NCBI GenBank assembly: GCA_963731685.1
Contig: CAVSWR010000036.1
Location: 263,191 to 327,190 of the forward strand
DNA from: an uncultured Planctomycetia bacterium
GTDB taxonomy: Bacteria > Planctomycetota > Planctomycetia > Pirellulales > S012-138
Length of the DNA stretch: 64,000 nucleotides
Direction: 5' to 3'
Notes under the pieces: model-generated
What the model was told of the DNA's origin: nothing
The model's input: the letters and a program-made list of their open reading frames with translations, nothing else
Database searches by the model: none
Shown: positions 4,536 to 64,000 of the stretch, in pieces
Layout of the letters: each line of letters starts with the position of its first letter
How positions within the stretch are numbered: position 1 is the first letter of the stretch
Position numbers and translations under genes: made by a program

Positions 4536-4550
4536 CTGAAAGCTGGCGCC

Positions 4551-5819: not shown

Positions 5820-5830
5820 CCGCATGACCC

Positions 5831-7042
5831 ATGGGATTCTACGAAGACCTTGGCGTGGCGCCCATCATCAACGCCTCGGGCACGGTTACGCGGTTGGGCG
5901 GCGCGCCGCTTCCCGCGGCAGCGCTGGACGCGTTTTGTGAAGCCGCGGGGCAAACGGCGCCGCTGGATCAGTTGCAAGCTGCGGCCTCGCGCCGCATTGC
6001 CCAACACACGGGCGCCGAGGCCGGCCTGGTCACCTCCGGCTCGGCGGCCGCGCTCACCCTTGGCGCCGCCGCGATTCTCGCACGGCTCGATCTGGGAAAG
6101 ATGGAACGGTTGCCGCATTGCGCCGGCTTTCCCCACGAGATGCTCATCGCCCGCGAACAGCGCAGCGGTTACGATCACGCCGTTCGCGCCGCGGGAGCGT
6201 GCTTGATGGAGGTGGGGTTCAATGAGATTGTGGCGGGCGCCGGCGTGCGGCGCACGGAAGCCTGGGAGTTCGAAGCGGCCATCACGCCGCAAACAGTCGG
6301 CGTGGTCTACGTGTTTTCTCCCGACTCGCGACCGCCGTTGGAGACACTTGTCGAGCGGGCCCACGCCCACAACTTGCCGGTGTTGGTCGACGCGGCCGGC
6401 GAGCTGCCGCCACGGCGCCATCTCAAGTCGATCGCGGCCACCGGGGCCGACCTGGTGTGCTTTAGCGGCGGCAAGGCGATCCGCGGCCCTCAATCCACCG
6501 GCATCCTCTGCGGACGCCGCGAACTGGTTTGCTCAGCGGCCTTGCAAATGCTCGACATGGACGATCACTTCGAGCTTTGGGATCCGCCGGCGGAACTGTT
6601 CGACAAGGGCTCGTTGCCCGGCATTCCGCGGCATGGCATTGGCCGGCCGATGAAGGTTTCCAAAGAGGAGATTGCGGCGTTGCTGGCGGCGCTTGATCTA
6701 TTCGCCTCCGGAGCGTACGACGCCGATTTGCCCGTCTTTCGCGGCTGGTTGGAGACAATCGCCGCGTCGCTGCGCGACTCGCACGCCACGTGCCGCATGA
6801 TCGAACCGCCCGATGGGGAAAGCCCCGCTTGGCTGGAGATTACCATCGACCAACAAGCCGCCGGGCGATCGGCGTTGGAAATCTGTCGCGCCCTGCGCCA
6901 AGGACGCCCGCCGATCTATGTTGGGCATGGCCGCCTGGCCGAGGGCCAACTGGTGATTCGCCCGCTGTGCTTGAGCGATAAGCATACGACAATCTTGGCG
7001 CGGCGGTTGCGGGAAGAGATCGGCCCCAGAACAGATGGTTGA
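5831..7042 (+). CDS. SelA-like PLP-dependent enzyme (L-seryl-tRNA(Sec) selenium transferase / DgaE-like family)
   Basis: Family-like layout with the putative PLP-Lys motif FSGGKAIRGPQSTGIL. Confidence 0.65.
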   Translation: MGFYEDLGVAPIINASGTVTRLGGAPLPAAALDAFCEAAGQTAPLDQLQAAASRRIAQHTGAEAGLVTSGSAAALTLGAAAILARLDLGKMERLPHCAGFPHEMLIAREQRSGYDHAVRAAGACLMEVGFNEIVAGAGVRRTEAWEFEAAITPQTVGVVYVFSPDSRPPLETLVERAHAHNLPVLVDAAGELPPRRHLKSIAATGADLVCFSGGKAIRGPQSTGILCGRRELVCSAALQMLDMDDHFELWDPPAELFDKGSLPGIPRHGIGRPMKVSKEEIAALLAALDLFASGAYDADLPVFRGWLETIAASLRDSHATCRMIEPPDGESPAWLEITIDQQAAGRSALEICRALRQGRPPIYVGHGRLAEGQLVIRPLCLSDKHTTILARRLREEIGPRTDG

Positions 7043-27323: not shown

Positions 27324-28416
27324 ACACTTCGATCCTGGTATTCGTCCTTGAATTGTTGCGTTGTGGCAAAGCTGGTTTGATGGGTTTCAAACAAGACTTG
27401 GCAAACCGAGGCCGCATCGAGCGCACCGCCCGGCGAAGACACGGCAGCTTGCTCCGCGGGTTGGGGTTCCGCCGATTGCAGCGCCTTGGGGTCTGGCTGA
27501 GTGGTCTGGGTTTCCGAGAATTCTGTTGGGCGCGTGGACTCTCCTCCTCGTCCTCCGGCGCTGCGCGCCGCGACTCGGCGAAGGCGGCATAATCCTCGTC
27601 CTGGCGGTCGGCCAGATTCCGCAAGTCGGCTTGGACTCGTCTGCCTTCGGCCGACGGCATCGACGTATTGATGACGGGAATCGGCGGAGGCTTCCGGCGA
27701 GGCGGCGCAATGGACGGCGGAGCAAAGGGGCCTTGTCGCGACGTTTGCGGACTCGCGTTGGCCAGTTCCGCCGCGTCAGTCGGGCCGCCGTTTTGCCCGC
27801 TTTCGCCTAGCAACGCAGTCGCCAGCGCGGCCATCGCGCGGACGACTGCGACAACGCGCCGAGAGTCGCTCACCAACCCCGGTTCAACAATTTGAATTCC
27901 ACGGTCGTCGATGGTCACATTGGGACTGCCTCGCAGAAACCGCTGGATTCGCAGCTGCCGCTCGGGCGTCAGGAACGCGCGCACGGCGTCGGGATCGGCG
28001 CCTTTCACCAGCGCCTCGGCGTCGAACGACGGGTTGCCCACCTCGATGTCTTGGGCTCCAAACTCTTTGGACACGCTGCTGATGAACCCCTCGCGGGTGA
28101 TCCGGAGACCCAAATTCAAGGACTGAGAAAACGTCAATCTGAAGCGCATGTGCGCGCCGGAGTTTCCGGAGCGCGCCGCGTACGTATCCAACTTGACGTA
28201 GAACCCACGATACGATCCTTGCATGAAACGCCGCTGCAAAACCCCGCCGCCGTGATTGGCGAGTCCCAACTGCGCGGCTGCGGTTTTCCACGCCGAGTCG
28301 GCCTCGCTGGTGCGGGCCACGTTGACGAGTACGCAAATCACAACAACAATGACGATGATGTAGACGACGGTCATAGCGGCAGTCCCACCTGGCGAGTCCC
28401 CCGTCCCCAACGTCAC
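27301..28416 (-). CDS. Hypothetical N-terminally membrane-anchored protein
   Basis: N-terminal TM helix VVYIIVIVVVICVLVNVA. The central region is protein-like; the C-terminal 80 aa are Arg/Pro-rich and suspect. Confidence 0.45.
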   Translation of the reverse strand: MTLGTGDSPGGTAAMTVVYIIVIVVVICVLVNVARTSEADSAWKTAAAQLGLANHGGGVLQRRFMQGSYRGFYVKLDTYAARSGNSGAHMRFRLTFSQSLNLGLRITREGFISSVSKEFGAQDIEVGNPSFDAEALVKGADPDAVRAFLTPERQLRIQRFLRGSPNVTIDDRGIQIVEPGLVSDSRRVVAVVRAMAALATALLGESGQNGGPTDAAELANASPQTSRQGPFAPPSIAPPRRKPPPIPVINTSMPSAEGRRVQADLRNLADRQDEDYAAFAESRRAAPEDEEESPRAQQNSRKPRPLSQTPRRCNRRNPNPRSKLPCLRRAVRSMRPRFAKSCLKPIKPALPQRNNSRTNTRIEVFAGPCAA

Positions 28417-30812
28417 TTGTTCAAGTCGACAGGCTTGCCGTCGTTGCGCATGAACAGGTTGCGCAGGTTCTCCCCATTCACGTTTTCACTGATGAAACGG
28501 ACGGAGCCGTCGCCCAGCAAGGCGAAAAACCCGCCTTTTCGGTGGCCGATCAGCGACTGCGTCGGTTTCTTGGGATCGAACTTCCATTCCTCGGGTTTGG
28601 TCCAAATCACGGCGCTTTCCGGCGCCGCCTCCACGACCATCGCGGTGTTAGAAAGTCCGTCGGTAACTTGTGCAAAACTGATTCCTTGGCCGTCGGCCCT
28701 CTTCGACGGCGGAAACAGCGTGTCTTTGCCCACCGGCACGAGGAAGCAGGTCTCGTACATGCCGACCTTCTTGCCGCCGGGCGACTTGAAGACGTCGGGC
28801 ATTTGCTTAATCAACTTCTTATTGTGTTCGCTGTCCCAAGGCTCGTCGAGGTGGAACTTTTGATACAGCGCTTGCTGCTCCAAGAACGGCAATACATGCA
28901 CGCGCCAACTCAGCAGCGGCTTGCCGTCTTTGTCGACGCTGGCGGGGGCGGGCAATGCGCGGTAGACATCGTGGAAATTGTGCATCGCCAAGCCAAGCTG
29001 CTTCAGGTTGTTCGACGCTTGCGTGCGCGTGTTGGCGACCCCAAAAGATTGGTACGCCGGCGTCGCGAAACCCATCAGCGTGGAAGCGGCGCCCAATCCG
29101 CCACTGACGCCCGGAATGCTCTCGTGGCTGACGGAACCGACACCGTCCTTGTGGCGCGTCACGGTGCTGACGGCCGGCGTCAAGTGCGGATAGATCGCCG
29201 TGGCCGAGGGCAGCAGCGACGTGTCGAAGTTAATCTCTTGCCTGCGGAGTTCTCCGCTCACGACCGGCGTCACCGCTTGCAGCACGGGGTACAACAGCCG
29301 GAAGAATTGGCCGGTGTCCTGATAGCTGAGCATGGCGGGCCGTTGCTTGAGCGCCGCGGCCACCGCCGGCGCCTTGGCCAACGATGGCGTAGCTTTGCCG
29401 TTGCGAGCCAGGAAGGCTTTGATCGTTTGCGGATACAGGCCGAAAACCAGGGCGTCGTCGGTCAGGCACCAGGCTGGCGCCAAGGGAGCGTTTCTCAGCC
29501 GCAAATAGTACACCTGCTGGCCGTGCGATTGGAAGGTCGCCACCGCGTCGTCATCGGTCGAGTTGCGAAGCATCGTGTTGATGCGCCCGAGCAGCTCTTT
29601 TCCGCGGGCCGGATCGCGCACTTCCACCATGGCGATGAGCCCGGTGACCAATAGACCGCCGTCGCCGGGCGAATTGTAAAACGACCAAACGTCTCCCAGC
29701 GGCTCGAGCACGTCCTGTTGGATACGGAAGCCCATGCTGGTTTCCATCTGGTCGATCTCGCCCAGGATGCCGTCATGGGCGACGGGGTTGATGTCGCCAA
29801 TGGCGTCTAACACGTCCTGATAGACCTTCGCCGCGTCGAAACGGCTGACGACCGCCCACGTTGCGTCGAGCGGAACGCGCCGCAGGTCTTTGGCGGTCAG
29901 CGGCTTGTCAGAAATCAGTTTGAACACGCCGCCGGGCTCGCCCGATGTGGCGATGAACGACCGCGTAAGCGTGCTCGTGTCGTCCAGTCCCATGACATTC
30001 GCGGCCCACTCGACATTCTCCAGCCCCAATGCTTCGATCACCTTCGGCGCCGTGGCGCCCAGGAACGGCAAGACCGTATCGCGGATCTTCGATAGGTTCA
30101 CATATTGCACCATGGCCGGCCGCGCGACCGGCATGCGGCCGTGTACCTGCTTGAGCCACGCCGGCGGTTCGCCCGGCTCAGCCAGGTTCCTGACGATTCG
30201 CTCGGCGGTTCCCTGTCCCACGGCCAACACGAAATAGTCGCCTTGGAAACCCCATTGAACCGGCGGAATCGGTCCGGGCAAAGGCAAGTCCTTGAACGCG
30301 GCGCCGGCGATGGTCACATCGCGAGGCGCCAACGCGCCGCGCGCCATGAGTTGCTCGACCTGGCCGACCAGCCGCTTTAACTCCGCGGCCTGGTCGCCGC
30401 CGCTGACGATCAACCCCGCCTTGATGTTCACGTTGGCCGCGCTGATCGGCCCCACTTCGGAGACAAACATGGCGGTCGGCCGGGTCAACACAAGCTTTGC
30501 CAACGGCAGGCCAATACTGGCCGCCATCTCCCCCTCCCCGCCGCCATTGCGTCGCAGCGTCGCGTCAATCTCGTCGAACACGCCGTGCAGAAACGCCTGC
30601 ACTTCTTCGTCGGCGAGCAACTGCTCGGTTTGGTTCGTGCTGTCCGCGTCCGGTTCGGCGGCGCCATACCAACTTAGGTAGCCCAAACACTCCGCTGGCG
30701 CCGCGGCCGTTAACGTGGTGTCTTCCGGCAAGGGAGGAATTGACAACGGCAGGCCGCTCGAGCCGCGCGCCGCAAAGAGCAACACAAAAACGGAGAGGAA
30801 ACCGGCGGTCAT
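28413..30812 (-). CDS. Large secreted protein with C-terminal DUF1559-type domain
   Basis: Signal peptide at the N-terminus. C-terminal block TRTQASNNLKQLGLAMHNFHDVYRALP…VRFISENV matches the DUF1559 core, which is normally found after a prepilin-like N-terminus. Confidence 0.6.
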   Translation of the reverse strand: MTAGFLSVFVLLFAARGSSGLPLSIPPLPEDTTLTAAAPAECLGYLSWYGAAEPDADSTNQTEQLLADEEVQAFLHGVFDEIDATLRRNGGGEGEMAASIGLPLAKLVLTRPTAMFVSEVGPISAANVNIKAGLIVSGGDQAAELKRLVGQVEQLMARGALAPRDVTIAGAAFKDLPLPGPIPPVQWGFQGDYFVLAVGQGTAERIVRNLAEPGEPPAWLKQVHGRMPVARPAMVQYVNLSKIRDTVLPFLGATAPKVIEALGLENVEWAANVMGLDDTSTLTRSFIATSGEPGGVFKLISDKPLTAKDLRRVPLDATWAVVSRFDAAKVYQDVLDAIGDINPVAHDGILGEIDQMETSMGFRIQQDVLEPLGDVWSFYNSPGDGGLLVTGLIAMVEVRDPARGKELLGRINTMLRNSTDDDAVATFQSHGQQVYYLRLRNAPLAPAWCLTDDALVFGLYPQTIKAFLARNGKATPSLAKAPAVAAALKQRPAMLSYQDTGQFFRLLYPVLQAVTPVVSGELRRQEINFDTSLLPSATAIYPHLTPAVSTVTRHKDGVGSVSHESIPGVSGGLGAASTLMGFATPAYQSFGVANTRTQASNNLKQLGLAMHNFHDVYRALPAPASVDKDGKPLLSWRVHVLPFLEQQALYQKFHLDEPWDSEHNKKLIKQMPDVFKSPGGKKVGMYETCFLVPVGKDTLFPPSKRADGQGISFAQVTDGLSNTAMVVEAAPESAVIWTKPEEWKFDPKKPTQSLIGHRKGGFFALLGDGSVRFISENVNGENLRNLFMRNDGKPVDLNK

Positions 30813-47626: not shown

Positions 47627-47699
47627 GGGGACGTAGCTCAATCGGGAGAGCACCGGCTTTGCAAGCCGGGGGTTGGCGGTTCGATCCCGCTCGTCTCCA
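47627..47699 (+). tRNA. tRNA-Ala (anticodon TGC)
   Basis: Cloverleaf GGGGACG/CGTCTCC acceptor stem with the G3:U70 Ala identity pair. Anticodon loop TTTGCAA. T-arm GGTTCGATCC. Discriminator A. CCA is not encoded. Confidence 0.9.
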
Positions 47700-47702
47700 C
47701 TA

Positions 47703-48915: not shown

Positions 48916-51693
48916 GTGCCAGCCCGGGTTGATACAATCAGCAAAGCAAATGCCGCGCCCCGGCCCGACTACGACCGCGACCTGGCGCTGCTCGACGCCG
49001 ACACCGGCTACCAGTCCGACAGCGCCGCCCGCTACGCCAGTGAGATGCTCGCGCTGGCCCAAGGCAGCGACACGCCCTGGGGCTGGGAGCACTCTGCGGA
49101 GGCCGCCGCCGCGGCCGAATACGCCTCCTCGATGGCCGCCGCCGCACTGACCGACGGCACGGCCACGATCGACGAGAGCTACACGTTCGCGCAGACCGTG
49201 GCCGACGAGACCCGCACGCTTTCGGTTAACGAGGCCACGGCCGCCTTCAATTCCGCCACGGCGCTGGCCGCGGCCGAGTACAACCACGTGACGTCCCACG
49301 CCACGGCCCTGGCCAACGACAACTACGACATCGCCGAGCGCGTGCCGACGGCGGTGATCACCTTGGTGGGATTGGACGACCTGGATGGCCGCGCGGCCGG
49401 CGACCCGGCCGACTTCATCGCGGCCTTGAACAAGAACGGCGGCTCCCCGTTCAGTGACCTCGGCGACAGCTTCTACACGGCGGCCGTCGACAAGATGTTC
49501 TACACGCCGCCGGAGACCGACGAACTCGGCTACAGCAACAGCTTCGACCGCTGGCTCGGCGAGAACCTCATCCGCCCCGCCGTCGGCGACGACAACCTCA
49601 TCAACGCCACCGACGCCCAGCTATTCTGGGGCACCGCGGCCTTCGCCGCGATAAGCGCGGTGAGCATTGTCTACGCCGCCCCAGTGCTCGCCACGGCCGT
49701 GGTCGACATGGGCATCAAGGGGGTGGTGTTCACACTGGCGAAAGATTTCATCATTGGCGGCGCGATCTCTGGCATCATCGACGCGGGCGTGCAGTTGGAG
49801 CACATGTACGAAAACGGCGGCGACTTCAATTGGAGTCGACTCGGCGAGTCCATCGTCGTGGGCGGTGTGATGGGCATGGGGATGGGAACGGCCTTCCGCG
49901 GCGTGCAGACCTTGTCGAAGGCCCTCACCACGCGCTACGCCGCGGCTTGCGTGCCGGTCACCATCGGCCAAAAGCTGGGGCTCGGCTACTTGGGCAGCAA
50001 GGGCATCGCTCATGGCGTCGAGGCCATCGGCAACGGCGAGACGGTCGAAGGCGTCAGCAGCATCTTGTTCGGCGCCCTCGGCGTGGCCGGCGCCCTGTCC
50101 ATGCGTTGGAACTGCTTCACGGCCGGCCATCAGATTCTCGCCTTGCCGCTCGGCGTGACCGTCGCTGAAGCTTCGGCAAGCATGAGCGACGAAACGCGAG
50201 GTTGGCGAACTGAGTATTTCATCGGCGCCAGCGTGGCGATTGCGGTCGGCATGACCGGTTGGGTGCGCGAACGCCGCAAACGCCGGCGACTGTTGGCGCA
50301 AGCCCGCGACCATGTGTATGGTTCCCAGTGGGAATCAAACTCGCGACATGACCTCGACGATGACGCATATCCAGATTTGATGCCGGAAGCAATCGCCATG
50401 GATGACGCCGAGGCTACTATTTGGGCGGATGAATCGTACCTGCCGGACGCGGACTATTTTGATGAGCGCGCAGCTCTACTTCAGGCGCTGAACAAGCTTG
50501 CGGCGTAGCGTGCCTACCGCGGCCACAAGCGGAGTTGATTCGCGATCCGCGCGCCGCGAAGCCATCCGCTGCGCGCAAAGCGAAGATCCCGGCCGATCAG
50601 CCGAGAGAATCACATCGCGGCGCGTCTATGGATCGGCCTTTCACTCATCGTCGCTTTCTTCTGTCTTTTCCAGGCGCTGCCCCGTTGGTCGCGCACCGAC
50701 GGCCTTTCTTCGTCGCGCACGCGACACGCTGTCGCTCCGTCTTCGCTCGACACGAATATCGCCAGCGACTACCGCGTCGGCGCCGAGAACTACAAGTTCT
50801 TCAACATCGAGGACATTCGCCCGGGACAGCTGGTCCTGGCGTCCAACCCTGCCACCGGCCAGCTTGAACCGCGCCGTGTCCTCCAAACCTTCCAGCGCAC
50901 AACCTACCACCTCCGCTACCTGACCTTCGAGTCTACCACCGGCGTCCGCCAAACCTTCGAGACAACGGACGAGCACCCGTTCTGGTCGCAATCTGAATTC
51001 CGCTGGGTATCCGCCGGCGACCTCCAACCCGGTGACCGCGTCATCGACCCGCACGGCGCGCAATCCCTCCTCGTCACCACCCACCGCGAGCCCCACCCCG
51101 AAGGCGTAACCGTCTACAACTTCGAGGTCGAAGGCTTCCACAGCTACTTCGTAGCGGCAAAAGGCCCTGGCGGTGAGCCGGTATTGGTGCATAATGCGGA
51201 CTGCGGCCCCAACTCGCCCAGCCGCTCCAGATCCCGTCCGTCAAACGACAACTTCCGTAACGGCTATGATCGGATATTTGGAAATGGTTCATCAGCAGAA
51301 ACGCGGGTGTTCCAAAATGAAATCCCCATCATGACACCAGCGCAAACGCAGCAAGCGCTAAGGGCTGGCGGCTACACAGGAAACACTTCGTGGGCATACA
51401 GCATTCATGATCATCACATCTCTCCGCGTTGGCTGGGTGGAAAAGACGCGGGACCACTGCTACGTGTGCGAGGTTTCGAGCATATTACCGATCTCGAACC
51501 TGGACTCTGGGCGCACGTGAAGCGAAACATCCCGGGGCTGACGGAAAAAACTACTGCAAATGTGCAGCGATTGATGCGAGACGGATTCGTCACAAGTGAA
51601 GAAATCATGCGAACGTTGTTCAGTTTTTACAAGGCTCGATATCCGCAACTATCGGATGAGGCAATCCTAAACGTGCTGAGACAGGGGTTGTGA
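48916..51693 (+). CDS. Polymorphic-toxin cassette A: 5'-truncated (homology to full-length copy starts ~48965, about aa 205) with two apparent frameshifts (~50440-50470 and ~50618); Hint domain plus C-terminal toxin tip A (DHH-type putative HNH/EndoVII-fold nuclease)
   Basis: ORFs 48916..50508, 50535.. and 51184..51693 together parallel copy 57352..60717. Landmarks are CFTAGHQILAL, …VYNFEVEGFHSYFVAAKGPGGEPVLVHN, then the tip …SIHDHHISPRWLGG…. Confidence 0.55.
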
Positions 51694-51694
51694 G

Positions 51695-52162
51695 ATGAAA
51701 TTCAACGAACAGATCCAAATTCGCGGCGAACCTTTTCCTAGCCCGCTCCCGTTGCCCCCATCACAAATGATTTCCCTGCTGGAGGCGCATGGCTTGCGAT
51801 TTGTGTTCGACGATGGCGTTTTGCGACTTCGTGGCACATATGACCCGACAAGATGCGAAACTTTAAAAGCGGTGTTGGCATCTAATGACCTTGATGTGAA
51901 TGTTTGGCAGCAAGTCTGGACAACATATGACGATGACGATTTCGACATGGCTCCTCTTTGGCTCGTCTTGGGGATTCCTGAAGTACGGATAGCGGGAATT
52001 GACTTTACTGTGACTTGCCCCATGTGCGCAAGAACCAAAGTCCACGTGGATACCGATGTACAAGTTCCAAGAGTGAATACACGCAAACCAATAGTCAACG
52101 TGAATGGGCAATTTACGATCGTTGGCGCAGAACTTGCCAGCGCATCGAAACGGACTTGCTAG
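51695..52162 (+). CDS. Candidate immunity protein for toxin tip A
   Basis: ATG overlaps the toxin stop (TGAGATG). ~48% GC. 155 aa. Confidence 0.45.
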   Translation: MKFNEQIQIRGEPFPSPLPLPPSQMISLLEAHGLRFVFDDGVLRLRGTYDPTRCETLKAVLASNDLDVNVWQQVWTTYDDDDFDMAPLWLVLGIPEVRIAGIDFTVTCPMCARTKVHVDTDVQVPRVNTRKPIVNVNGQFTIVGAELASASKRTC

Positions 52163-52176
52163 GATTCTCGCTGCCC

Positions 52177-52476
52177 ATGTTTGACGTTGCGGGCAGATAC
52201 CATTATTTGCGGTCTACGTGCCAACTTCGGCACCCTGCTATTCGTTCTGCTTACGCTATTGGTCTAAGAGGGAACTGCACGCTATGTTCGCTGCCACTCT
52301 ATGACAAATTCTTCGGCCCGCTGGAGTACCCCAGAAAGGAATGGCACGATGAGGATATTGTCTACTGCGACTTTTATAGTTGCAATGCATACACACCTAA
52401 GGCATACAATTTGCTTCGGAACGCTGACTCGGCTATTGTTCGAGACCGGATCATCTTGATGGAAGCATCGACGTGA
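52177..52476 (+). CDS. Second small low-GC ORF downstream of cassette A (hypothetical; possible additional immunity gene)
   Basis: 100-aa Cys/Tyr-rich ORF (…YCDFYSCNAYTPKAYNLL…). Confidence 0.3.
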   Translation: MFDVAGRYHYLRSTCQLRHPAIRSAYAIGLRGNCTLCSLPLYDKFFGPLEYPRKEWHDEDIVYCDFYSCNAYTPKAYNLLRNADSAIVRDRIILMEAST

Positions 52477-52539
52477 GTGAGCGGCTTTTCACATCTGACC
52501 GCACTGCAGTTCAGACGTCACACAGTCCAGGACGAGAAA

Positions 52540-52660
52540 AAGCTGGTATGTGGGTAACGCGATTTTAGCAACAGCGCGTACCGATTGCGCCTCCTGCGTT
52601 GCAGTCTTTGAAAGTTCAGTCGAAGGACTCGGCGCGGTTGCGGCGATCGACTCATCTCGG
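52540..52660 (+). repeat. ~115-bp inter-cassette element, copy 1 (second copy at 60995-61108)
   Basis: …CGCG(A/G)TTTTAGCA(A/G)CAGCGCGT…GAAAGTTC(A/C)GTCGA(A/C)GGACTCGGCG(C/T)GGTTGCGGCGATCGACTCATCTCGG… is conserved at both sites. Confidence 0.7.
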
Positions 52661-52752
52661 TCGATTTTCTGAGTTGTTCTCGCCAACTTGTCATAAAAGA
52701 GGCCAAGGCGCCGAGCTGCCATATCCGGCGTGCAACTTCTCGACAGAGCGCC

Positions 52753-54088
52753 GTGCTCTTGAAAAACGGCCTTGGCTCGCCAGCTTTCGCCGGCGGCGGC
52801 GCCGACCATGTCTACGAATCGCAATGGTGGATGGAACTGCCGCGCCACGCGGATGAAGACGATGAATTCGATCGGGCGATGAGCGAAGGAATCGCCGTGA
52901 CTGACGGCGCCGATGCGGATGTCTGGTCGGACGAGTCATTCCTCCCTGAGGCCGATTCTTTCCGTGATTGCGAACCTTCGCCAACTTCCGTTGGAGTTCA
53001 CGCTTTAGGCTGCTTGACGCCGCCGCGCGCGGAACGATCAACGGCAACGGCGCGCTTTTCGAAAGGCGCCACGTTCCCATAAAACGCTTATCGAGTCCAA
53101 GCCGCCGCGCGAATCCCGCCGCGGCGCGCTCTGGCTCGGTGTTTCGCTCCTCGTGGCCTTCTTCTCTCTGTTCCAGGCCCTTCCCCGTTGGTCAGCAAAC
53201 GACGGCCTTGCGCCGACGTGCGTTGAGCAAGCCGTCACTCTCGACTCGCTCGACACCAAACTTGCCGGCGACTACCGCGTCGGCGGCGAGTCCTTCAGCT
53301 TCTTCAACATCGAGGACATTCGCCCCGGACAACTCGTCCTCGCCTCGAACCCCGCCACCGGCCAGCTTGAGCCCAAACGCGTCAAGCAAATCTTCCGCCG
53401 CATTACGGACCATCTCCGCCACCTCACCTTTGAATCCTCCACCGGCGCCCGCCAAACCTTCGAAACCACCGACGAGCACCCCTTCTGGTCGCAATCCGAA
53501 TTTCGCTGGCGCCCCGCCGGCGACCTCCAACCCGGCGACCGAGTCATCGACCCCCACGGCGCCACCTCTCTCCTCGTCGCCACGCATCGCGAACCCCACC
53601 CCGAAGGCGTCCCAGTCTACAACTTCGAGGTAGAAGGCTTCCACAGCTACTTCGTAGCGGCAAAAGGCCCTGGCGGCCAGCCAGTGTTGGTGCATAATGC
53701 AAATTCACAAACATATGGCCCCCACAAATCAATTGGAACGAAAACCGGAGAGCAACGTCATCACATAATCCAAGATGCAAGAGCCAGGATTGTCGACAAC
53801 TACAAGTATGGCGATGCTCCCGCGGTTCGACTTCGGGGGAACCGCTTGCGTGGCACGCCGCATGGCGATGCGAGCGCGATGCAAACTCGAATAAATCAGA
53901 CGCTCCTAAAGAAAGGCACGACTCGGATAAGGTATCCACAAGCTCGATCGGCGGCGCGCGCTGAACTAAGGGCCGCAGGTCTCACGGAAAAGGAAATAGA
54001 CATCTTGATAGAGGAAGCCGACGATTACTTCATAAACGAACTGAAAATTGATGTAACGCAACGCATTTTCAACGTCCCAACGCAATGA
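52753..54088 (+). CDS. Polymorphic-toxin cassette B: 5'-truncated orphan (homology starts ~52800 at ADHVYxxQW); apparent frameshift ~53040-53090; Hint domain plus toxin tip B (RHHIIQ-type putative HNH-fold nuclease)
   Basis: …VYNFEVEGFHSYFVAAKGPGGQPVLVHNANSQTYGPHKSIGTKTGEQRHHIIQDARARIV… The tip is unrelated to tips A, C and D. Confidence 0.55.
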
Positions 54089-54921
54089 AAACCTGTAACT
54101 ATGTACGTATAAGGCGTGGCCTAACTGAGTGTAAATCACTAGTCTTGGCTCATATCGAAGATGATGACTCGCCAGATGTAATAGTGAGTCAACTCATTTC
54201 TATTGGCAGCGGTGACTGCGAAATTGTGGGTGACTTTCCAGGTGAGTGGATCACGTGCTTCGACGTTCAAGAAGACCTATGTGTTGCGGTTTCGTCGCTC
54301 GGAACAATCTACGAATATCGCCATGGTAAATGGAGCATCATTGCACAATTGACCTTTCCTAATGTGATCGCTGATGTGATCATATTGGATCGTGGCACGT
54401 ACTTGATTGCTGGCCAAGGCGGATTGATAGGCGAGTGGTCGCATGATGGATTTGTGCGAACCAGAGCATCTCGACGTGTGGACTTGATCTCAATTTGTCG
54501 CGATGAAGACGGTGGTTACTTGATATGTGGTGACCAAGGAACCATCCTGAGGTATCGCGACAATGCGGTGTTTAGCGAAGATGCAGGCACGCGTGAAAAG
54601 CTAACGAGGATTCTTTGTACGAATGCAGGTTTGTCATTTGCTTGTGGTTGGAACGGCGCATTGATACGGCGCGAAAGCGGAAAATGGCTACCGATGGATA
54701 GTGGCACAGATTGGTGCCTTACCGGGATCGCAATCACCGATCACGACCAAGTCTATGTGGCAGGTGGCGGGCTCGCCCGAGTTGGAAACGGTACTTGCTG
54801 TGTAGAAATAGATTCTGATCTAACGAATACATATTTATTTGACATATGGAAGATTCGTGACGAGCAGTTTATCGTTACCGGCGTGGACCAGGTATTGACT
54901 GGACCTCCGTGGAAAGTTTAA
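54085..54921 (+). CDS. Candidate immunity protein for toxin tip B
   Basis: ATGA start/stop overlap. ~45% GC. 278-aa protein with repeated G-x-L/I-rich units suggesting a repeat/propeller fold. Confidence 0.45.
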   Translation: MKTCNYVRIRRGLTECKSLVLAHIEDDDSPDVIVSQLISIGSGDCEIVGDFPGEWITCFDVQEDLCVAVSSLGTIYEYRHGKWSIIAQLTFPNVIADVIILDRGTYLIAGQGGLIGEWSHDGFVRTRASRRVDLISICRDEDGGYLICGDQGTILRYRDNAVFSEDAGTREKLTRILCTNAGLSFACGWNGALIRRESGKWLPMDSGTDWCLTGIAITDHDQVYVAGGGLARVGNGTCCVEIDSDLTNTYLFDIWKIRDEQFIVTGVDQVLTGPPWKV

Positions 54922-55062: not shown

Positions 55063-56712
55063 TACCTACCTGAGCGGCAAAGGCATCGCTCATGGCGTCG
55101 AGGCGATCGGCAACGGCGAGACGGTCGAAGGCATCAGTAGCGTCCTCTTGGGCGCCCTCGGCGTGGCCGGCGCCTTGTCGATGCGTTGGAACTGCTTCAC
55201 CGCCGGCCATCAGATTCTCGCCTTGCCGCTCGGCGTGACGGTGGCCGAAGCCGCGCTCGGCGCGAATGATGAAACGACCGGTTGGCGAACCGAGTATCTC
55301 ATCGGCGCCGGCGTAGCGATTGCCGTCGGCATGACCGGTTGGGCGCGCGAGCGCCGCAAACGCAGGCGATTGTTGGCGGAAGCCCGCGACCATGTGTATG
55401 GTTGCCAGTGGGAAACAAACTCGCGACATGACTTCGACGATAACGACGACCCGTTGCGGGAAGCAATCGCCATGGACCACGCGGAAGCCGCTATTTGGTC
55501 AGATGAATCGTTCCTCCCAGACGGGGATTCGTTCAATGAGCCAACAACCACGTCTTTTACTTCAGGCTCTGAACAAGCTCACAGCGTAGCGTGCCTTGCG
55601 CCGCCGCATGTGGCGCTTTCCGCTCGAATGCCGTGCGCCACGAAACCATCCGCTGCCCGCAATGCGAACGTGAAAGTTAAGACGCCGCGCCGATCCCGTC
55701 GCAGCGGTCTTTGGCTTGGTCTTTCACTCGTCGTAGCTTTCTTCTGCCTGTTCCAGGCGTTACCTCGCTGGTCTTCCACCGATGGCCTGCCATCGGCGGG
55801 CAATCGGCACGCCGTCGCTCCTTCTTCGCTCGACACGAACATCGCCAGCGACTACCGCGTCGGCGCGAACACGTACAACTTCTTCAACATCGAGGACATT
55901 CGACCCGGACAACTGGTCCTCGCCTCGAACCCCGCCACCGGCCAACTCGAACCGCGGCGAGTCCTTCAAACCTTCCGCCGCACAACCCATCACCTGCGCC
56001 ACCTGACCTTCCAATCCCCCACCGGCGCCCACCAAACCTTCGAAACCACCGACGAGCACCCCTTCTGGTCCCACGGCGCCGCCCGCTGGACCCCCGCTGG
56101 CGACCTCCAACCCGGCGACCGAGTCATCGACCCCCACGGCGCCAATCCCTACTCATCGCCACCCGCCGCGACCCCCATCCCGAAGGCGTCACCGTCTACA
56201 ACTTCGAGGTCGAAGGTTTCCACAGCTATTTCGTAGCCGCCAAAGGCCCTGGCGGCCAACCGGTATTGGTTCATAATGCAGCCTGCGGCCCCAACTCGCC
56301 CAGCCGGTCCAGATCCCGTCCGGCCAACGACGAATACCGTTCGAGTTACGACCGGATTTTTGGTGGCACCCCTAGGGGCGGAGCACATCCTGCTACTAAG
56401 AAAGCTGCAAGTTTTGGCAGTACAATGCATGCCGATAAACCCGGACACCTTCCGGACCAACTGCGTCAACGCTTTCCAGAGACTGAGTTTGAATTCACCA
56501 AACCGGGCGTTGCAGGACAAGATGTAAAGGTCGCGGGTGGCAAACACCCTTCGGATTACGCTGGATCGACGTGGCCAAGCGGAGTTAACCATGCTGATTT
56601 CAAACCGAATACCCCCGGTGGCTTGAAGACGTTCCAATCCGACCAGCTCAAGAAATGGTTGGAGAGGACCGAAATGTTACGCTACAATCCATCAACCGGA
56701 GACCTACTGTGA
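55063..56712 (+). CDS. Polymorphic-toxin cassette B2: 5'-truncated orphan (homology starts ~55063, just before the CFTAGHQ motif); 1-nt deletion ~56150; Hint domain plus toxin tip C (unassigned)
   Basis: ORFs 55148..56236 and 55711..56712. The tip shares its first ~25 aa (ACGPNSPSRSRSRPANDEYRSSYDRIFGG) with tip A and then diverges (…HADKPGHLPDQLRQRFPETEFEFTKPGVAGQDVKVAGGKHPSDYAGSTWPSGVNHADFKPNTPGG…). Confidence 0.5.
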
Positions 56713-57152
56713 TTAGCAAACAATTGGCGTATCCAGGGTTTACGATTGATGTTCCATGCAGCTGGGATGATATTACGGCGACTCTTGATGATGCGGACGC
56801 GCCTATTACAATCGCAGATCCTCAAGCAGGTTTGGGGGCGTTTCAGATATCGCCTGCGTTATATAAACGTGGTGTCTTACCCAAAGTGACGCCCAACGAC
56901 CTGCGGACTATGCTTCTTGAGTTTACGTCCGCTAAGGGCTTTCATGCCGCTGGCGACGTGATAGAGAATCTGGGCGACACCATTGTGGTGGGCGGCGTTT
57001 TTCGCAGTTCAAACTACGCCGTGGAAGTTGCCTACGCCTCTGACGGGCGGAGTATTCTGTTGGTAACCTATGTTTGTGAATGGTTTCAGAGGCGTCAGGA
57101 ATCGGACGTGAGAATGGCAGTGATCCGCTCAATCCGCTTTGTTGATTCTTAA
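56709..57152 (+). CDS. Candidate immunity protein for toxin tip C
   Basis: GTG overlapping the toxin stop (GTGA). 148 aa, soluble. Confidence 0.4.
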   Translation: MISKQLAYPGFTIDVPCSWDDITATLDDADAPITIADPQAGLGAFQISPALYKRGVLPKVTPNDLRTMLLEFTSAKGFHAAGDVIENLGDTIVVGGVFRSSNYAVEVAYASDGRSILLVTYVCEWFQRRQESDVRMAVIRSIRFVDS

Positions 57153-57351: not shown

Positions 57352-60300
57352 TTGCTCAATTTCAATCTGCCGTCGGTCGAGTTTTTGGTCGATCGGGCGT
57401 CGCACGAGGCGACCTGGGCCGCGGCCGAGGCGCCGCAATACGTCGCCTATCGCACGGCGGCGGCCCAGCTTCAACGCACTTACGACACCGCCGACATCAA
57501 CGCCGGGCGGGCCTGGGAAACCGCCCTGGCCACGGCCGGCTACAACCGCGACGTGGCCGAGGCCGCCGCCGAATATGCGAAAGAAACGGCCGTGGCCGCC
57601 GCGGGCAAGGCCTACGTCGACGGCGTCGCCCCCGTGGAGAGGACGCGCGCCGCCGACGTGGCCATAGCCTATCTCCTCTACGACTTCGCCGTGGCCGGCG
57701 CGCAATACGATTACGACATCGCCGATGTCCCGGACATGAACGTCTACAACGCCGCCGTGTCGGCCGCCGCGGGCGTTCGCGACGCGGCCGTCAAGACCGC
57801 CGAAAAGGCCTACGACACCGACGCCATCCAGGTCGAAAAGACGCGTCTTATCGCCCAGGCCGGCGCCGAACGTGACGCGAGCGTGGCTTTCGCCACCGCC
57901 GACGAGACTTGGCTCATCGCCGCCGCCGACGCCACGAAGACCGCCGCGCTGGCCGACGCCACGGCCGTCCACGACCGCGACCTGGCGCTGTTGAACACTG
58001 ACACCGGCTACCAGTCCGACAGCGCCGCCCGCTACGCCGATGAGATGCTCGCGCTGGCCCAAGGCAGCGACACGCCGTGGGGTTGGGAACACTCTGCGGA
58101 GGCCGCCGCCGCGGCCGAATACGCCTCCTCGATGGCCGCCGCCGCACTGACCGACGGCACAACCACGATCAACGAGAGCTACACGTTCGCGCAGACCGAG
58201 GCCGACGAGACCCGCACGCTTTCGGTCAACGAGGCCACGGCCGCCTTCAATTCCGCCACGGCGCTGGCCGCGGCCGAGTACAACCACGTCACGTCCCACG
58301 CCACGGCCCTGGCCAACGACAACTACCACATCGCCGAGCGCGTGCCGACGGCGGTGATCAACCTGGTCGGCCTGGACGACCTGGAAGGCCGCGCGGCCGG
58401 CGACCCGGCCGATTTCATCGCGGCCTTGAACAAGAACGGCGGCTCTCCCTTCAGCGACCTCGGCGACAGCTTCTACACGGCGGCCGTGGATAAGATGTTC
58501 TACACGCCGCCGGAGACCGACGAACTGGGCTACAGCAACAGATTCCAGCGCTGGCTTGGCGAGAACCTCATCCGCCCCGCCGTCGGCGACGACAATCTTA
58601 TCAACGCCAGCGACGCCGAGTTATTCTTCGGCACGGCCGCCTTCGCCACGATCGCGGCCGTCACCATCGTCTACACAGGGCCGACAATCGTTAGTTCGGT
58701 GATCGCCGCGCAGGGCGCCATCGCCGCCTTTGCCGGCAGTTCGTTTTTGGCGTATGAAGTCACGCAAGCGGCCACCGGCGCCGTCATCTCGGGCATCCTC
58801 GATGTGGCCATGCAGTTGCAAGCCGGCACGTCTTGGAGCCGCATCGACTGGGGGCAGGCCGGCATGGCCGCCTTGAACGGCGCCGTGACCGGCGCGGTTT
58901 TCGGCGCGGGCTTCAAGGGTCTCCAATTCGCCGCGACCGCCATCACCACGCGTTTCGCTGCGGCGTGCTTGCCGGTCACCTTCGGACTTAAAGGCATGAT
59001 GGCGGGCATGGCGGTCGACGGTATCAAGAATGGCGTCGAAGCGTGGAACAACGGCGACTTTGTCGGAGGCGCCACAAGCATAGCCTTTGGCATACTCGGC
59101 TTGAAAGGCGCCTTGAGTTTGGGCACAAACTGCTTCACCGCCGGCCATCAGATTCTCGCCTTGCCGCTCGGCGTGACGGTGGCCGAAGCCGCGCTCGGCG
59201 CGAATGATGAAACGACCGGTTGGCGAACCGAGTATCTCGTCGGCGCCGGCGTAGCGATTGCCGTCGGCATGACCGGTTGGGCGATCGAACGCCGCAAACG
59301 CCGGCGATTGTTGGCGGAAGCCCGCGACCACGTGTATGGTTGCCAGTGGGAATCAAACTCGCGACATGAACTCGACGACGACGCCCCGTTGCGGGAAGCA
59401 ATCGCCATGGACCATGCGGAAGCCACTATTTGGGCGGATGAATCGTTCCTGCCAGACGCGGACTCGTTCTATGAGCCAACAACCACCTCTTTTACTTCAG
59501 GCTCTGAACAAGTTCACAGCGTAGCGTGCCTCGCGCCGCCGCAAGTGGCACTTTCCACTCAAACGCCGCGCACCGCAAAAACATCCGCCGCCCGCAAAGC
59601 GAAGGTACCGACCGAGCCGCAGCGTAAATCACATCGCAGCGGTCTCTGGCTGGGTCTTTCACTCGTCGTTGCTTTCTTCTGCCTCTTCCAGGCGCTACCT
59701 CGCTGGTCCCGCACCGACGGCCTAACATCAGCGGGCACCCAACACGGTGTCGCGTCCGCGTCTTTCGACACCAACTTAGGCGCCGACTACCGCGTTGCCG
59801 GCGAATCCTACCAATTCTTCAAAATCGAGGATATCCGTCCCAACCAACTCGTCCTCGCCTCGAACCCCGCCACCGGCCAACTCGAACCGCGGCGAGTTCT
59901 CCAAACCTTCCGTCGCACAACCTATCACCTGCGCCACCTGACCTTCGAGTCCCCATCCGGCGCCCGTCAAACTATCGAAACCACCGACGAGCACCCCTTC
60001 TGGGCGCAATCCGAGTTTCGGTGGCGCCCTGCCGGCGACCTCCAACCCGGCGACCGCGTCATCGACCCGCACGGCGCGCAATCCCTCCTCGTCACCACCC
60101 ACCGCGAGCCCCACCCCGAAGGCGTAGCCGTCTACAACTTCGAGGTCGAAGGCTTCCACAGCTACTTCGTAGCGGCAAAAGGCCCTGGCGGGGAACCAGT
60201 GTTGGTTCATAATGCTAGTTACGGTGAGAATGCGCCAAGGGCGGGAGTCGCGTCAGCTGGCCCGGGAGCGGCGCAATCAAAGTCCAGCGGTTTTACGATG

Positions 60301-60717
60301 TGGCGTTGGATCACTGGTGAGCCCACAAAAGCGTTTCCGCAGGCTCGATTTTCTTTCTACCGTGTCGCCAGATCAGAGAAGTTTGCTTCGCACTTTGGAT
60401 TTTCGAGAGTAGGAGCCGCAAATCGGTCCGAATACGCAGCTTTCCTGCGACAATTGCGTAGCGCTGAGTTTAGACAAAGCAACGTCGTACAAGGCGGTTG
60501 GGCTGGCCGCGGTGCTGACGGAAACATCGTTATGGCACTAAGCCAGCGCAATCTGAACAACACTATGGCTGCGACTCATGAACTGACGCATTTAGTTCGG
60601 AACTTCCGGGGGATTACGCCTTTTGAGGCTGAGGCATCAATGCGTGGAGTCTTTCGATACAGAGCTTGGATTGAGGAGGCCAGAACATGGTGGCACATGT
60701 GGAGAGGTGGGCAATGA
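57352..60717 (+). CDS. Intact polymorphic toxin (1121 aa): Ala-rich N-terminal region, variable Gly-zipper-like hydrophobic segment, split Hint domain, C-terminal HExxH (zinc-metallopeptidase-like) toxin tip D
   Basis: Single uninterrupted ORF from TTG 57352. Contains CFTAGHQILALPLG…(insert with RRKRRRLL and the TM helix LWLGLSLVVAFFCLF)…IEDIRPNQLVLASNPATGQLEPRRV…TTDEHPFW…GDRVIDP…VYNFEVEGFHSYFV…VLVHNAS, then tip D with AATHELTHLV. Confidence 0.7.
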   Translation: MLNFNLPSVEFLVDRASHEATWAAAEAPQYVAYRTAAAQLQRTYDTADINAGRAWETALATAGYNRDVAEAAAEYAKETAVAAAGKAYVDGVAPVERTRAADVAIAYLLYDFAVAGAQYDYDIADVPDMNVYNAAVSAAAGVRDAAVKTAEKAYDTDAIQVEKTRLIAQAGAERDASVAFATADETWLIAAADATKTAALADATAVHDRDLALLNTDTGYQSDSAARYADEMLALAQGSDTPWGWEHSAEAAAAAEYASSMAAAALTDGTTTINESYTFAQTEADETRTLSVNEATAAFNSATALAAAEYNHVTSHATALANDNYHIAERVPTAVINLVGLDDLEGRAAGDPADFIAALNKNGGSPFSDLGDSFYTAAVDKMFYTPPETDELGYSNRFQRWLGENLIRPAVGDDNLINASDAELFFGTAAFATIAAVTIVYTGPTIVSSVIAAQGAIAAFAGSSFLAYEVTQAATGAVISGILDVAMQLQAGTSWSRIDWGQAGMAALNGAVTGAVFGAGFKGLQFAATAITTRFAAACLPVTFGLKGMMAGMAVDGIKNGVEAWNNGDFVGGATSIAFGILGLKGALSLGTNCFTAGHQILALPLGVTVAEAALGANDETTGWRTEYLVGAGVAIAVGMTGWAIERRKRRRLLAEARDHVYGCQWESNSRHELDDDAPLREAIAMDHAEATIWADESFLPDADSFYEPTTTSFTSGSEQVHSVACLAPPQVALSTQTPRTAKTSAARKAKVPTEPQRKSHRSGLWLGLSLVVAFFCLFQALPRWSRTDGLTSAGTQHGVASASFDTNLGADYRVAGESYQFFKIEDIRPNQLVLASNPATGQLEPRRVLQTFRRTTYHLRHLTFESPSGARQTIETTDEHPFWAQSEFRWRPAGDLQPGDRVIDPHGAQSLLVTTHREPHPEGVAVYNFEVEGFHSYFVAAKGPGGEPVLVHNASYGENAPRAGVASAGPGAAQSKSSGFTMWRWITGEPTKAFPQARFSFYRVARSEKFASHFGFSRVGAANRSEYAAFLRQLRSAEFRQSNVVQGGWAGRGADGNIVMALSQRNLNNTMAATHELTHLVRNFRGITPFEAEASMRGVFRYRAWIEEARTWWHMWRGGQ

Positions 60718-60971
60718 CGGGACACACAACAAAGCTACAACGAGCGTTCTGGTGGTGGCGAAACCCGTTTGTAAAGTTAATCATGCTCATAGCCTTTTCA
60801 GCAATCGGTGGTATAGCTCTTGCAACGCATGAGCTGCCGTTCTGGGTCCGTTTTCCCATTTACATTCTGTGGAGCGTCACTGCAATTCTCACGTTGATTT
60901 GTGCCGCGGCTGTTCTATTGGAGGAACGCGCGCGAAAGAAAAGGCGGAAAGTGTCGGAGGATAAATCATGA
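60714..60971 (+). CDS. Candidate immunity protein for tip D: small two-TM membrane protein
   Basis: ATGA overlap with the toxin stop. Hydrophobic helices LIMLIAFSAIGGIALA and ILWSVTAILTLICAAAVLL, then a KKRRK tail. Confidence 0.5.
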   Translation: MTGHTTKLQRAFWWWRNPFVKLIMLIAFSAIGGIALATHELPFWVRFPIYILWSVTAILTLICAAAVLLEERARKKRRKVSEDKS

Positions 60972-61321: not shown

Positions 61322-64000
61322 TAAGTCCAATATTTCCTCCGTTCCCTTGCTCAATTACAACCTCCCGTCGGTCGATTTTCTGGTCGATCGGGCGTCGCAC
61401 GAGGCGACCTGGGCCGCGGCCGAGGCGCCGCAATACGTGGCCTATCGCACGGCGGTGGCCGGGTTGCAACGGGCTTACGACACGGCCGACATCAACGCCG
61501 GGCGGGCCTGGGAAACCGCCCTGGCCACGGCCGGCTACAACCGCGACGTGGCCGACGCCGCCGCCGAGTATGCGAAAGAAACGGCCGTGGCCGCCGCCGG
61601 CAAGGCCTACGCCGACGGCGTCGCCCCCGTGGAGAGGACCCGCGCCGCCGCCGTGGCCGCCGCCTATCGCGTCTACGACCTCGCCGTGGCCGACGCCCAG
61701 CGCGATTACGACACGGCCGATGTCCCGGATATGAACGCCTACAACGCCGCCGTGTCGGCCGCCGCGGGCGTTCGCGACGCGGCCGTCAAGACCGCCGAGA
61801 AGGCCTACGACACCGGGGCCATCCAGGTCGAAAAGACGCGTCTCATCGCCCAGGCCGGCGCCGAGCGTGACGCGAGCGTGGCTTTCGCCACGTCCGACGA
61901 GACTTGGCTCATCGCCGCCGCCGACGCCACGAAGACCGCCGCGCTGGCCGACGCCGCGGCCGTCCACGACCGCGACCTGGCGCTGCTGAACACCGACACC
62001 GGCTACCAGTCCGACAGCGCGGCCCGCTACGCCGACGAGATGCTCGCGCTGGCCCAAGGCAGCGACACGCCCTGGGGCTGGGAACACTACGCGGAGGCCG
62101 CCGCCGCGGCCGAATACGCCTCTTCGATGGCCACGGCCGCACTGACCGACGGCACAACCACCATCAACGAAAGCTACGCGTTCGCCCAAACCGAGGCCGA
62201 CGAGACCCGCACGCTTTCGGTGAACGAGGCCACGGCCGCCTTCAATTCCGCCACGGCGCTGGCCGCGGCCGAGTACAACCACGTCACGTCCCACGCCACG
62301 GCCCTGGCCGACGACAACTACCACATCGCCGAGCGCGTGCCGACGGCGGTGATCAACCTGGTCGGCCTGGACGATCTGGAAGGCCGCGCGGCCGGCGACC
62401 CGGCCGACTTCATCGCGGCCTTGAACAAGAACGGCGGCTCTCCCTTCAGCGACCTCGGCGACAGCTTCTACACGGCGGCCGTCGACAAGATGTTCTACAC
62501 GCCGCCGGAGACCGACGAACTCGGCTACAGCAACAGCTTCGACCGCTGGCTCGGCGAAAACCTCATCCGCCCCGCCATCGGCGACGACAATCTCATCAAC
62601 GCCACCGACGCCCAGCTATTCTGGGGCACCGCGGCCTTCGCCGCGATAAGCGCGGTGACCATCGTCTACGCCACCCCAGTGCTCGCCACGGCGGTGGTCG
62701 ACATGGGCATTAAGGGTGTGGCGTTCACTCTCGCGAAGGATTTCATAATCGGCGGCGCGATTTCTGGCGTCATCGACGCCGGAGTCCAGTTGGAGCACAT
62801 GTACGAAAACGGTGGTGACTTCAATTGGAGCCGACTCGGCGAGTCCGTCGTCGTGGGCGGCGTGATGGGCATGGGCATGGGAACCGCCTTCCGCGGCGTG
62901 CAGACCTTGTCGAAGGCCCTCACCACGCGCTACGCGGCGGCTTGCGTGCCGGTCACCATCGCCCAAAAGCTGGGGCTTACCTACCTGAGCGGCAAGGGCA
63001 TCGCGCATGGCGTCGAGGCGATCGGCAACGGCGAGACGGTCGAAGGCGTCAGTAGCGTCCTGTTGGGCGCCCTCGGCGTGGCCGGCGCCTTGTCGATGCG
63101 CTGGAACTGCTTCACCGCCGGCCATCAGATTCTCGCCTTGCCGCTCGGTGTGACCGTCGCCGACGCTGCGCATCGGCGGCAAGTGATGAAACGAGCGGTT
63201 GGCGAACGGAGTATCTCATCGGCGCCGGCGTGGCGATTGCCGTCGGCATGACCGGTTGGGCGCATGAACGCCGCAAACGCAGGCGACTGTTGGCGCAAGC
63301 GCGCGACCATGTGTATGGTTGCCAGTGGGAATCAAACTCGCGACATGATGTTGACGACGACGACGAATCGAGCCCGTTGCGGGAAGCAATCGCCATGGAC
63401 GACGCGGAAGCCGCTATTTGGTCGGATGAATCGTTTCTGCCAGACGCGGATTCGTTTGATGAGCCAGCAACTACCTCCTTCGCTTCAGGCGCCGAGCAGT
63501 TCACGGCGTAGCATGCCTGCCGCCGCCGCAAGCGGCGCAGTTGATTCAAACGCCGCGCGCCGCAAAACCATCCGCTGCCCGCAAAGCGAAGATCCGACCG
63601 AGCCGCTGCGAGAATCACATCGCGGCGGTCTTTGGTTTGGTCTTTCACTCGTCGTCGCTTTCTTCTGCCTCTTCCAGGCGCTACCCCGCTGGTCCCACAC
63701 CGACGGCCTTCAATCAGCGCGCACTCGACACGGTGTCGCTCCGCTTCTCTCGACACGAACATCGCCAGCGACTACCGCGTCGGCGCGCGACACCTACAAA
63801 TTCTTCAACATCGAGGACATTCGTGCCGGACCAACTCGTCCTCGCCTCGAACCCCGCCACCGGCCAACTTGAACCGCGGCGCGTTCTCCAAACCTTCCGT
63901 CGCACAACCTATCACCTGCGCCACCTAACCTTCCAGTCCCCCACCGGCGCCCGTCAAACCTTCGAAACCACCGACGAGCACCCCTTCTGGTCTCACGGCG
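61322..64000 (+). CDS. Polymorphic-toxin cassette D (3' end outside window): starts at the same boundary as the intact copy (GDKSNI…LLNYNLPSVDFLV); three or more apparent frameshifts (~63165, ~63505, ~63790)
   Basis: ORF 61086..63251 matches copy 57352.. from 61322 on. The central hydrophobic segment is of the cassette-A type. After CFTAGHQILALPLGVTVA the frame is lost and resumes in ORFs 63230.., 63264.. and a further frame to the window end. Confidence 0.55.

Follow-up and report, generated by a model that had tools for sequence, protein, structure and literature searches.

Among known polymorphic toxins, the Tox-SHH family has been assigned to the HNH/EndoVII fold, with an [SG]HH motif and an additional His; it is associated with HINT domains and occurs in planctomycetes, where HINT-linked examples were already catalogued in 2012 (Zhang et al. 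2012, PMC3482391). The family is included in the His-Me finger classification. For its effector V2c and other members, metal-dependent DNase activity has been shown to need the HH and helix His residues, on which the toxicity of V2c depends as well (10.1101/2023.03.20.533438). Members of Tox-SHH (PF15652) such as V2c of Agrobacterium tumefaciens 1D1609, Tke4 of Pseudomonas putida and Txe4 of P. plecoglossicida have an xHH at the end of strand 1 and a His at the start of a helix, in a domain of ~95–125 amino acids (aa) that lies C-terminally after HINT or RHS and is followed by an immunity gene. The closest known systems further include the DNase domains of colicins E9/E7/E2 and of S-type pyocins, the DNase toxin domains of TseN (PDB 9j9w) and PT1 (PDB 8ows), and the orphan arrays of Rhs/CdiA and HINT toxins (PMC3482391). 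Here we compare with these systems a toxin gene array in an uncultured Planctomycetia bacterium (order Pirellulales), located in a 64,000-nucleotide (nt) stretch of contig CAVSWR010000036.1 that we refer to as the window, and in particular its two C-terminal toxin domains, tips A and B.

We consider it likely that this locus is a chromosomal array of five paralogous HINT toxin cassettes, in which tip B would be a Tox-SHH DNase and tip A a rare toxin with a partner protein containing CxxC motifs. Five tandem paralogous polymorphic-toxin units, A to E, lie on the plus strand at 48.9–64 kb and continue to the end of the window, with D the sole intact cassette among them. The product of D has an N-terminal part rich in Ala, hydrophobic segments (aa 422–453 and 763–783), PT-HINT and a 166-aa tip. 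The HINT domain of every cassette ends in ...GGxPVLVHNA, with unrelated sequence thereafter. The pretoxin region, the sharp junction, the releasing peptidase, a putative immunity gene for each tip and the orphan cassettes that characterize polymorphic toxins are all found here, and the array shares its pretoxin region, sharp tip switch, immunity genes, truncated copies and mosaic structure with the Rhs/CdiA orphan arrays and HINT toxins. The interval 51184–54088, which the initial annotation had singled out for its two tips, takes in two further elements: the tip A partner gene, which is frameshifted, and the truncated cassette B pretoxin. The features of the array are as follows.

48952..51198, plus strand: pretoxin part of cassette A, truncated at its 5' end and matching nt 601–2864 of D (blastn/tblastn against D).
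50803–51198, plus strand: PT-HINT of cassette A (Pfam PF07591, E 2.6e-23).
51199..51690, plus strand: tip A, a linker common to A and C (51199 to ~51282) and then the toxin domain, which belongs to an unnamed family.
51695..52476, plus strand: putative immunity (partner) gene of tip A, matched by tblastn/blastp to the genes after tip A homologues in L001, L002, L005 and L006.
52804..53701, plus strand: pretoxin remnant of cassette B, comprising the last ~310 pretoxin codons (D aa 659–968; tblastn).
53306–53701, plus strand: PT-HINT of cassette B (Pfam PF07591, E 1.1e-20).
53702..54085, plus strand: tip B, predicted to be a divergent Tox-SHH His-Me finger nuclease domain.
54085..54921, plus strand: putative immunity gene of tip B, encoding 278 aa; its start overlaps the stop codon of tip B.
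55070..56712, plus strand: cassette C, with its pretoxin part at 55070–56265 (D aa 553–962).
56281–56709, plus strand: tip C, with a 28-aa leader in common with tip A.
57352..60717, plus strand: cassette D, a full-length, uninterrupted gene of 1121 aa.
aa 824–955 of D, plus strand: PT-HINT of cassette D (Pfam PF07591, E 1.7e-19).
61347..63996, plus strand: cassette E, another paralogue, in which the frame is broken several times and which runs past the window end.
47627..47700, plus strand: tRNA-Ala(TGC), immediately 5' of the array (ARAGORN).

The two tips had attracted attention through HH strings reminiscent of HNH/EndoVII-fold nuclease toxins. Both strings are present in plus-strand open reading frames (ORFs), as SIHDHHISPRW at 51400–51432 in tip A (HH codons 51412–51417) and GEQRHHIIQDA at 53747–53779 in tip B (HH codons 53759–53764), within C-terminal segments that start directly after the ...VLVHNA end of PT-HINT. 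The bare HH motif is only mildly unusual, with HH[IV] arising in ~1.1% of composition-preserving shuffles of each tip and plain HH in 9–12%. It is because the motifs are conserved among the relatives of each tip that they amount to more than chance.

For tip B, a word-indexed homologue search returned nothing, and its relatives came from an exhaustive phmmer search of 1.84e9 representative proteins (E<=1e-3), which gave 100 proteins of 100–3650 aa. The match is nearly always C-terminal, and several of these proteins bear RHS repeats or PT-HINT. H20, H21, Q24 and H54 are invariant in 98/98 aligned domains, corresponding in the window to the HH codons given above, 53771–53773 (Q24) and 53861–53863 (the helix residue His54). 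The clade consensus reads AHHIIQDAAVRDxPGY...APAxxLxGPS...GTPH...GGTYGxER...ALRAAG...ADxYF. When 38 of the relatives were scanned against Pfam, 34 matched Tox-SHH (best E 2.5e-15); the only other toxin families were AHH (three) and Tox-GHH2 (two), both of which are related HNH/EndoVII families. Scanned singly, four of 20 relatives reach the gathering score of PF15652 (P0012, 30.3 bits; P0016, 22.7; P0024, 32.0; P0025, 38.7), and seven fall just under it, at 17–21 bits. Tip B matches these same four proteins with E values of 8e-9 to 8e-7 (against 1.84e9 proteins), so its link to Tox-SHH is transitive, running through P0012, P0016, P0024 and P0025 to PF15652.

A confident AlphaFold2 model of tip B, based on 38 sequences (predicted local distance difference test, 96.4; predicted template modelling score, 0.89), has a strand at residues 17–21 that ends in the HH, a loop, a second strand at 40–45 and a helix at 53–70 that starts with P53-H54. 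This is the beta-beta-alpha-metal (His-Me finger) topology, with a His at the end of strand 1, and it matches what has been described for V2c. Along with this arrangement, tip B has the HH dyad, the downstream helix His, the length and the C-terminal placement beside a putative immunity gene that are typical of Tox-SHH. Foldseek comparison of the model with the PDB gave nothing significant, and a sequence-profile search of the PDB gave chance helical matches only. Judged from its relatives and its modelled topology, tip B probably belongs to the Tox-SHH (His-Me/HNH-EndoVII) toxins as a divergent member, for which nuclease activity is predicted. For this tip, both the proposed resemblance to HNH/EndoVII-fold toxins and the expectation that its His residues would be conserved have therefore been borne out.

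By analogy with V2c, tip B would act as a one-metal His-Me finger DNase, in which His21 at the end of strand 1 would serve as the general base, while His20 and His54 at the helix start would hold the metal. There are differences from described Tox-SHH proteins, however. Tip B has RHH rather than [SG]HH, within a clade that mostly has AHH or SHH in its AHHIIQDAAVR signature, and its loop is longer, with 33 residues from H21 to H54 compared with 24 in V2c. Its carrier is predicted to be a membrane-anchored planctomycete protein, not a PAAR/type VI secretion system effector, and its partner is not among the listed Imm families.

In L008, P0005, a relative of tip B, is followed by a gene whose N-terminal half resembles the 278-aa product encoded beside tip B (26% identity, E 1e-20). 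This similarity and the position of the product make it a likely immunity protein for tip B. It has no Pfam match, whether to known immunity families or otherwise. The protein shows repeated GxIxxY/W-type blades, giving it a propeller-like look, and its homologue in L008 (2451–4253), which matches WD40/HEAT weakly in Pfam, continues into a fused HEAT-repeat region at its C-terminus. P0005 and P0004, the closest relatives of tip B (L008 104–2467 and L007 261–1403, respectively), are annotated as Tox-SHH in precomputed Pfam data, whereas hmmscan at E<=0.01 gave PT-HINT alone; this discrepancy is probably due to thresholds or Pfam versions.

Tip A belongs to a much smaller group, with 15 homologues among 5.8 billion clusters. 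All sequences spanning the region share WAYSIHxHHxYPxWLGG...G...[RK][VI]RG[FYL]EH...LE[PS], and HxHH is invariant in 12/12 relatives that cover the motif, so that here, too, the HH dyad is conserved. H42, H44 and H45 (codons at 51406 and 51412–51417), E66 and H67 (51478–51483), and E72 (51496–51498) are invariant in all sequences covering those positions, while H78 and D43 show no conservation. The domain also recurs in contexts typical of toxin tips: in P0108 it follows the C-terminal end of a HINT domain (VLVHNTC), and in L004 RHS-repeat fragments precede it. Another homologue, P0002, has a signal-peptide-like N-terminus. On the evidence of sequence conservation and context, tip A behaves as a genuine polymorphic-toxin tip of a rare, unnamed family. 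The family has no match of any kind in Pfam, NCBIfam or the PDB, and no PHROGs match with an assigned function.

In the window, loss of a single nucleotide near 52139 breaks the partner gene of tip A into two ORFs. Its two CxxC pairs lie at 52016 and 52276. Homologues of this gene, 249–259 aa long and also carrying two such pairs, are found in four independent contigs, where each begins no more than a few bases from the stop codon of the tip A homologue. This synteny marks 51695–52476 as the putative immunity gene of tip A; its product matches no known immunity family in Pfam. We tentatively suggest that tip A and its ~255-aa double-CxxC partner constitute an undescribed toxin-immunity pair, representing a new fold or a very divergent branch of the His-Me proteins and occurring in scattered phyla either as a HINT- or RHS-borne tip or as a small, stand-alone protein bearing a signal peptide.

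Several results weigh against the reading of the locus as a HINT toxin array with HNH-type tips. At the level of the carrier, the 1121-aa protein D matches no Pfam family except PT-HINT at E<=1 and has no recognised trafficking or secretion domain; the array thus differs from those of Rhs/CdiA in lacking RHS, FilH, PAAR, LXG or any other such domain, as well as in the hydrophobic segments that precede its HINT. Cassettes A–C also sit upstream of the intact gene, unlike the downstream position of truncated cassettes in classic orphan arrays. For tip B, the residue before the HH is an Arg where Ser, Gly or Ala is usual (A 61, S 28, G 6 and R 3 among 98 relatives), and the tip itself scores 17.8 bits (E 0.0058) on PF15652, or 15.2 bits within its ORF, compared with a gathering score of 22.7. 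As the scores of its relatives straddle the gathering score, we place the clade of tip B at the edge of PF15652. As for tip A, neither the tip nor its 15 relatives match any HNH or nuclease family in Pfam, NCBIfam or PHROGs to E<=10, profiles of the whole domain and of its 49-aa core give chance helical matches only among PDB sequences, and hhalign assigns a probability of 1.5–3% to its relationship with the tip B family. The comparison with colicins, which used a small alignment of E9, E2, pyocin and klebicin DNase sequences (the E9 sequence being 100% identical to NC_011977.1), reproduced in hhalign the match seen by eye, at a score of 10.0 that was reached by 71/300 column shuffles (mean 8.7 +/- 2.1), and we retain an E9-like HNH only as a lead.

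We regard it as evenly balanced whether tip A lies outside the HNH/His-Me proteins altogether, as a toxin of a different and possibly new fold, such as another metal-dependent hydrolase or an RNase, in which the HH is coincidental. A fold search gave no support for HNH, no profile or structure ties tip A to any HNH family, the hhalign comparisons with the Tox-SHH-like and colicin DNase profiles are not significant, H78, expected in the predicted helix, is not conserved, and the CxxC partner family of ~255 aa matches no known family of HNH-toxin immunity proteins. Set against this, a low-confidence model of tip A places the invariant HH in a strand, followed by a GG loop, a second strand, and then the EH and a helix. 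The HHxxPxxxGG spacing is the same as in colicin E9, and among polymorphic-toxin tips no class is commoner than nucleases (PMC3482391). More broadly, the colicin E9/E7/E2 and S-type pyocin DNases share with tip A the pattern HH-x2-P-x3-GG ... RV ... (E/R)H-I, which in E9 reads ELHHDKPISQGG...NIRV...RHIDIH. This similarity is without statistical support, and we do not claim membership; tip A also has a hydrophobic residue in place of the structural Asn and four more helices downstream, whereas the colicin motif lies at the extreme C-terminus. For tip A, the initial suggestion of an HNH/EndoVII resemblance has the conserved HH dyad in its favour, with no HNH support from profile and fold searches.

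From the invariant HxHH...RG-EH...LE residues, tip A is most likely a metal-dependent hydrolase, and plausibly a His-Me-type nuclease. Metal-dependent nuclease is our best guess for its activity, to which we would give slightly less than even weight. Other assignments were discarded: a HEPN-like Rx5H reading of RVRGFEH, as the region is predicted to be a strand, and an HD-domain reading of the HD, as D43 is not conserved. The single match from a contig scan with the tip A alignment, L003 (6001–6108), is a chance FEHITDLEP in an unrelated 866-aa ORF of a myxobacterial metagenome-assembled genome.

The junction region bears on how the array has evolved. Tips A and C had been noted to share their first 25 residues, which was taken as a sign of recombination within the tip. 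The common stretch in fact extends over the first ~28 residues after VHNA, xCGPNSPSRSRSRPxNDxxRxxYDRIFG, with nucleotide identities of 0.90, 0.90 and 0.67 in three successive 30-nt bins past the junction (~85 nt in common), whereas all other cassette pairs drop to random identity (~0.27) directly past it. Upstream of the junction, A and D are 98–100% identical in the final ~140 nt of HINT (51040–51198 versus 60058–60216) and 70–83% identical before that, and in one 60-nt bin the identity of B and C rises to 97%. Such mosaic identity, as read from the alignments, indicates recent gene conversion or recombination across HINT-coding DNA, and the leader shared by A and C fits shifted recombination or divergence points, consistent with the earlier suggestion.

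By analogy with polymorphic toxins in general (PMC3482391), protein D, which is intact, would be exported or anchored via its hydrophobic segments. The HINT autoprotease would then cut at the C-terminal HN (VLVHN|A) and free the tip; in many relatives, a Cys or Ser lies within three residues past the HN. The freed tip would degrade the DNA of a target cell, with the product of the adjacent gene shielding the producer. Truncated cassettes A–C, each retaining the 3' end of HINT, a different tip and a downstream partner gene, are most simply taken as silent orphan stores, able through recombination within HINT to replace the 3' end of an intact gene. Cassette A appears to be decaying, as both its carrier and its partner gene are broken.

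That the frame-broken cassettes are instead an artefact of assembling repeats, through collapse, chimaeras or indel errors, and that the genome has intact full-length genes with tips A–C, is in our view improbable. The cassettes are repeats of 79–93% identity, which makes for difficult assembly, and several frame breaks are present: in cassette A, the loss of 7 nt near 50475 and the gain of 1 nt near 50623; in B, a frame change near 53063–53073; and in C, a 1-nt deletion within a GCGCGC run at 56143. However, read errors do not typically take the form of a 7-nt deletion, of large 5' truncations or of single-base indels away from homopolymers, D is uninterrupted over 3.4 kb, and the divergence among cassettes (70–93% identity) is enough for them to be resolved. 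As the indels are not homopolymer errors, and sequences identical to D and to the tip B partner exist in public records, on a 338-kb contig, we consider assembly error unlikely. More improbable still is that neither tip is a functional domain and that the HH strings arose by chance in the debris of decaying pseudogenes. Plain HH does arise in shuffled tips at the rate given above, truncation or frame breaks affect cassettes A, B and C, and the tip A partner is frameshifted. Conservation, however, already largely refutes this explanation, since both tips stay in frame up to their stop codons with all invariant residues of their families retained, the HH motifs are invariant across 98 (B) and 12 (A) relatives on unrelated contigs, and the partner genes are syntenic in other contigs.

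With the locus read as a HINT toxin array, polymorphic toxins released by HINT gain an example from planctomycetes, and the understanding of such systems is unchanged. At its gathering threshold, moreover, the Tox-SHH model of Pfam leaves out much of the AHHIIQDAAVR-type clade. Mild novelty is confined to the tip A family and its CxxC partner, a rare pair without entries in Pfam 2025, NCBIfam 2026 or the PDB and with no functionally annotated PHROG.

Of the remaining tips, tip D (60202–60714) contains an HExxH motif, THELTHL (HELTH at 60577–60591), which suggests a zinc-metallopeptidase toxin; it has no match in Pfam or among PDB sequences. A small hydrophobic ORF of 94 aa (60687–60971) overlaps its end. 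Tip C (56281–56709) has no match in Pfam or the PDB either, and its 3' end is overlapped by an ORF at 56655–57152. In the N-terminal ~750 aa of protein D (57352–59600), no Pfam trafficking domain was matched.

The ~215 codons before the toxin junction, which encode the transmembrane segment and PT-HINT (50539–51183, 53042–53686 and 59557–60201), contain 0, 2 and 1 in-frame ATG/GTG/TTG codons, respectively, where ~14 would be expected from their share of 6.4% of codons in the other genes of the window. GTA, CTT and CTA are over-used in these stretches, the other frames are also poor in ATG/GTG/TTG, and the strand is C-rich. The depletion may thus be compositional, rather than the result of selection against internal starts. 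Elsewhere, genes at 2511–7042 and 28413–30812 place the window in a planctomycete chromosome through the planctomycete-specific families that they carry, namely PSD2-5/PSCyt3, DUF1552 (HXXSHH) and DUF1559.

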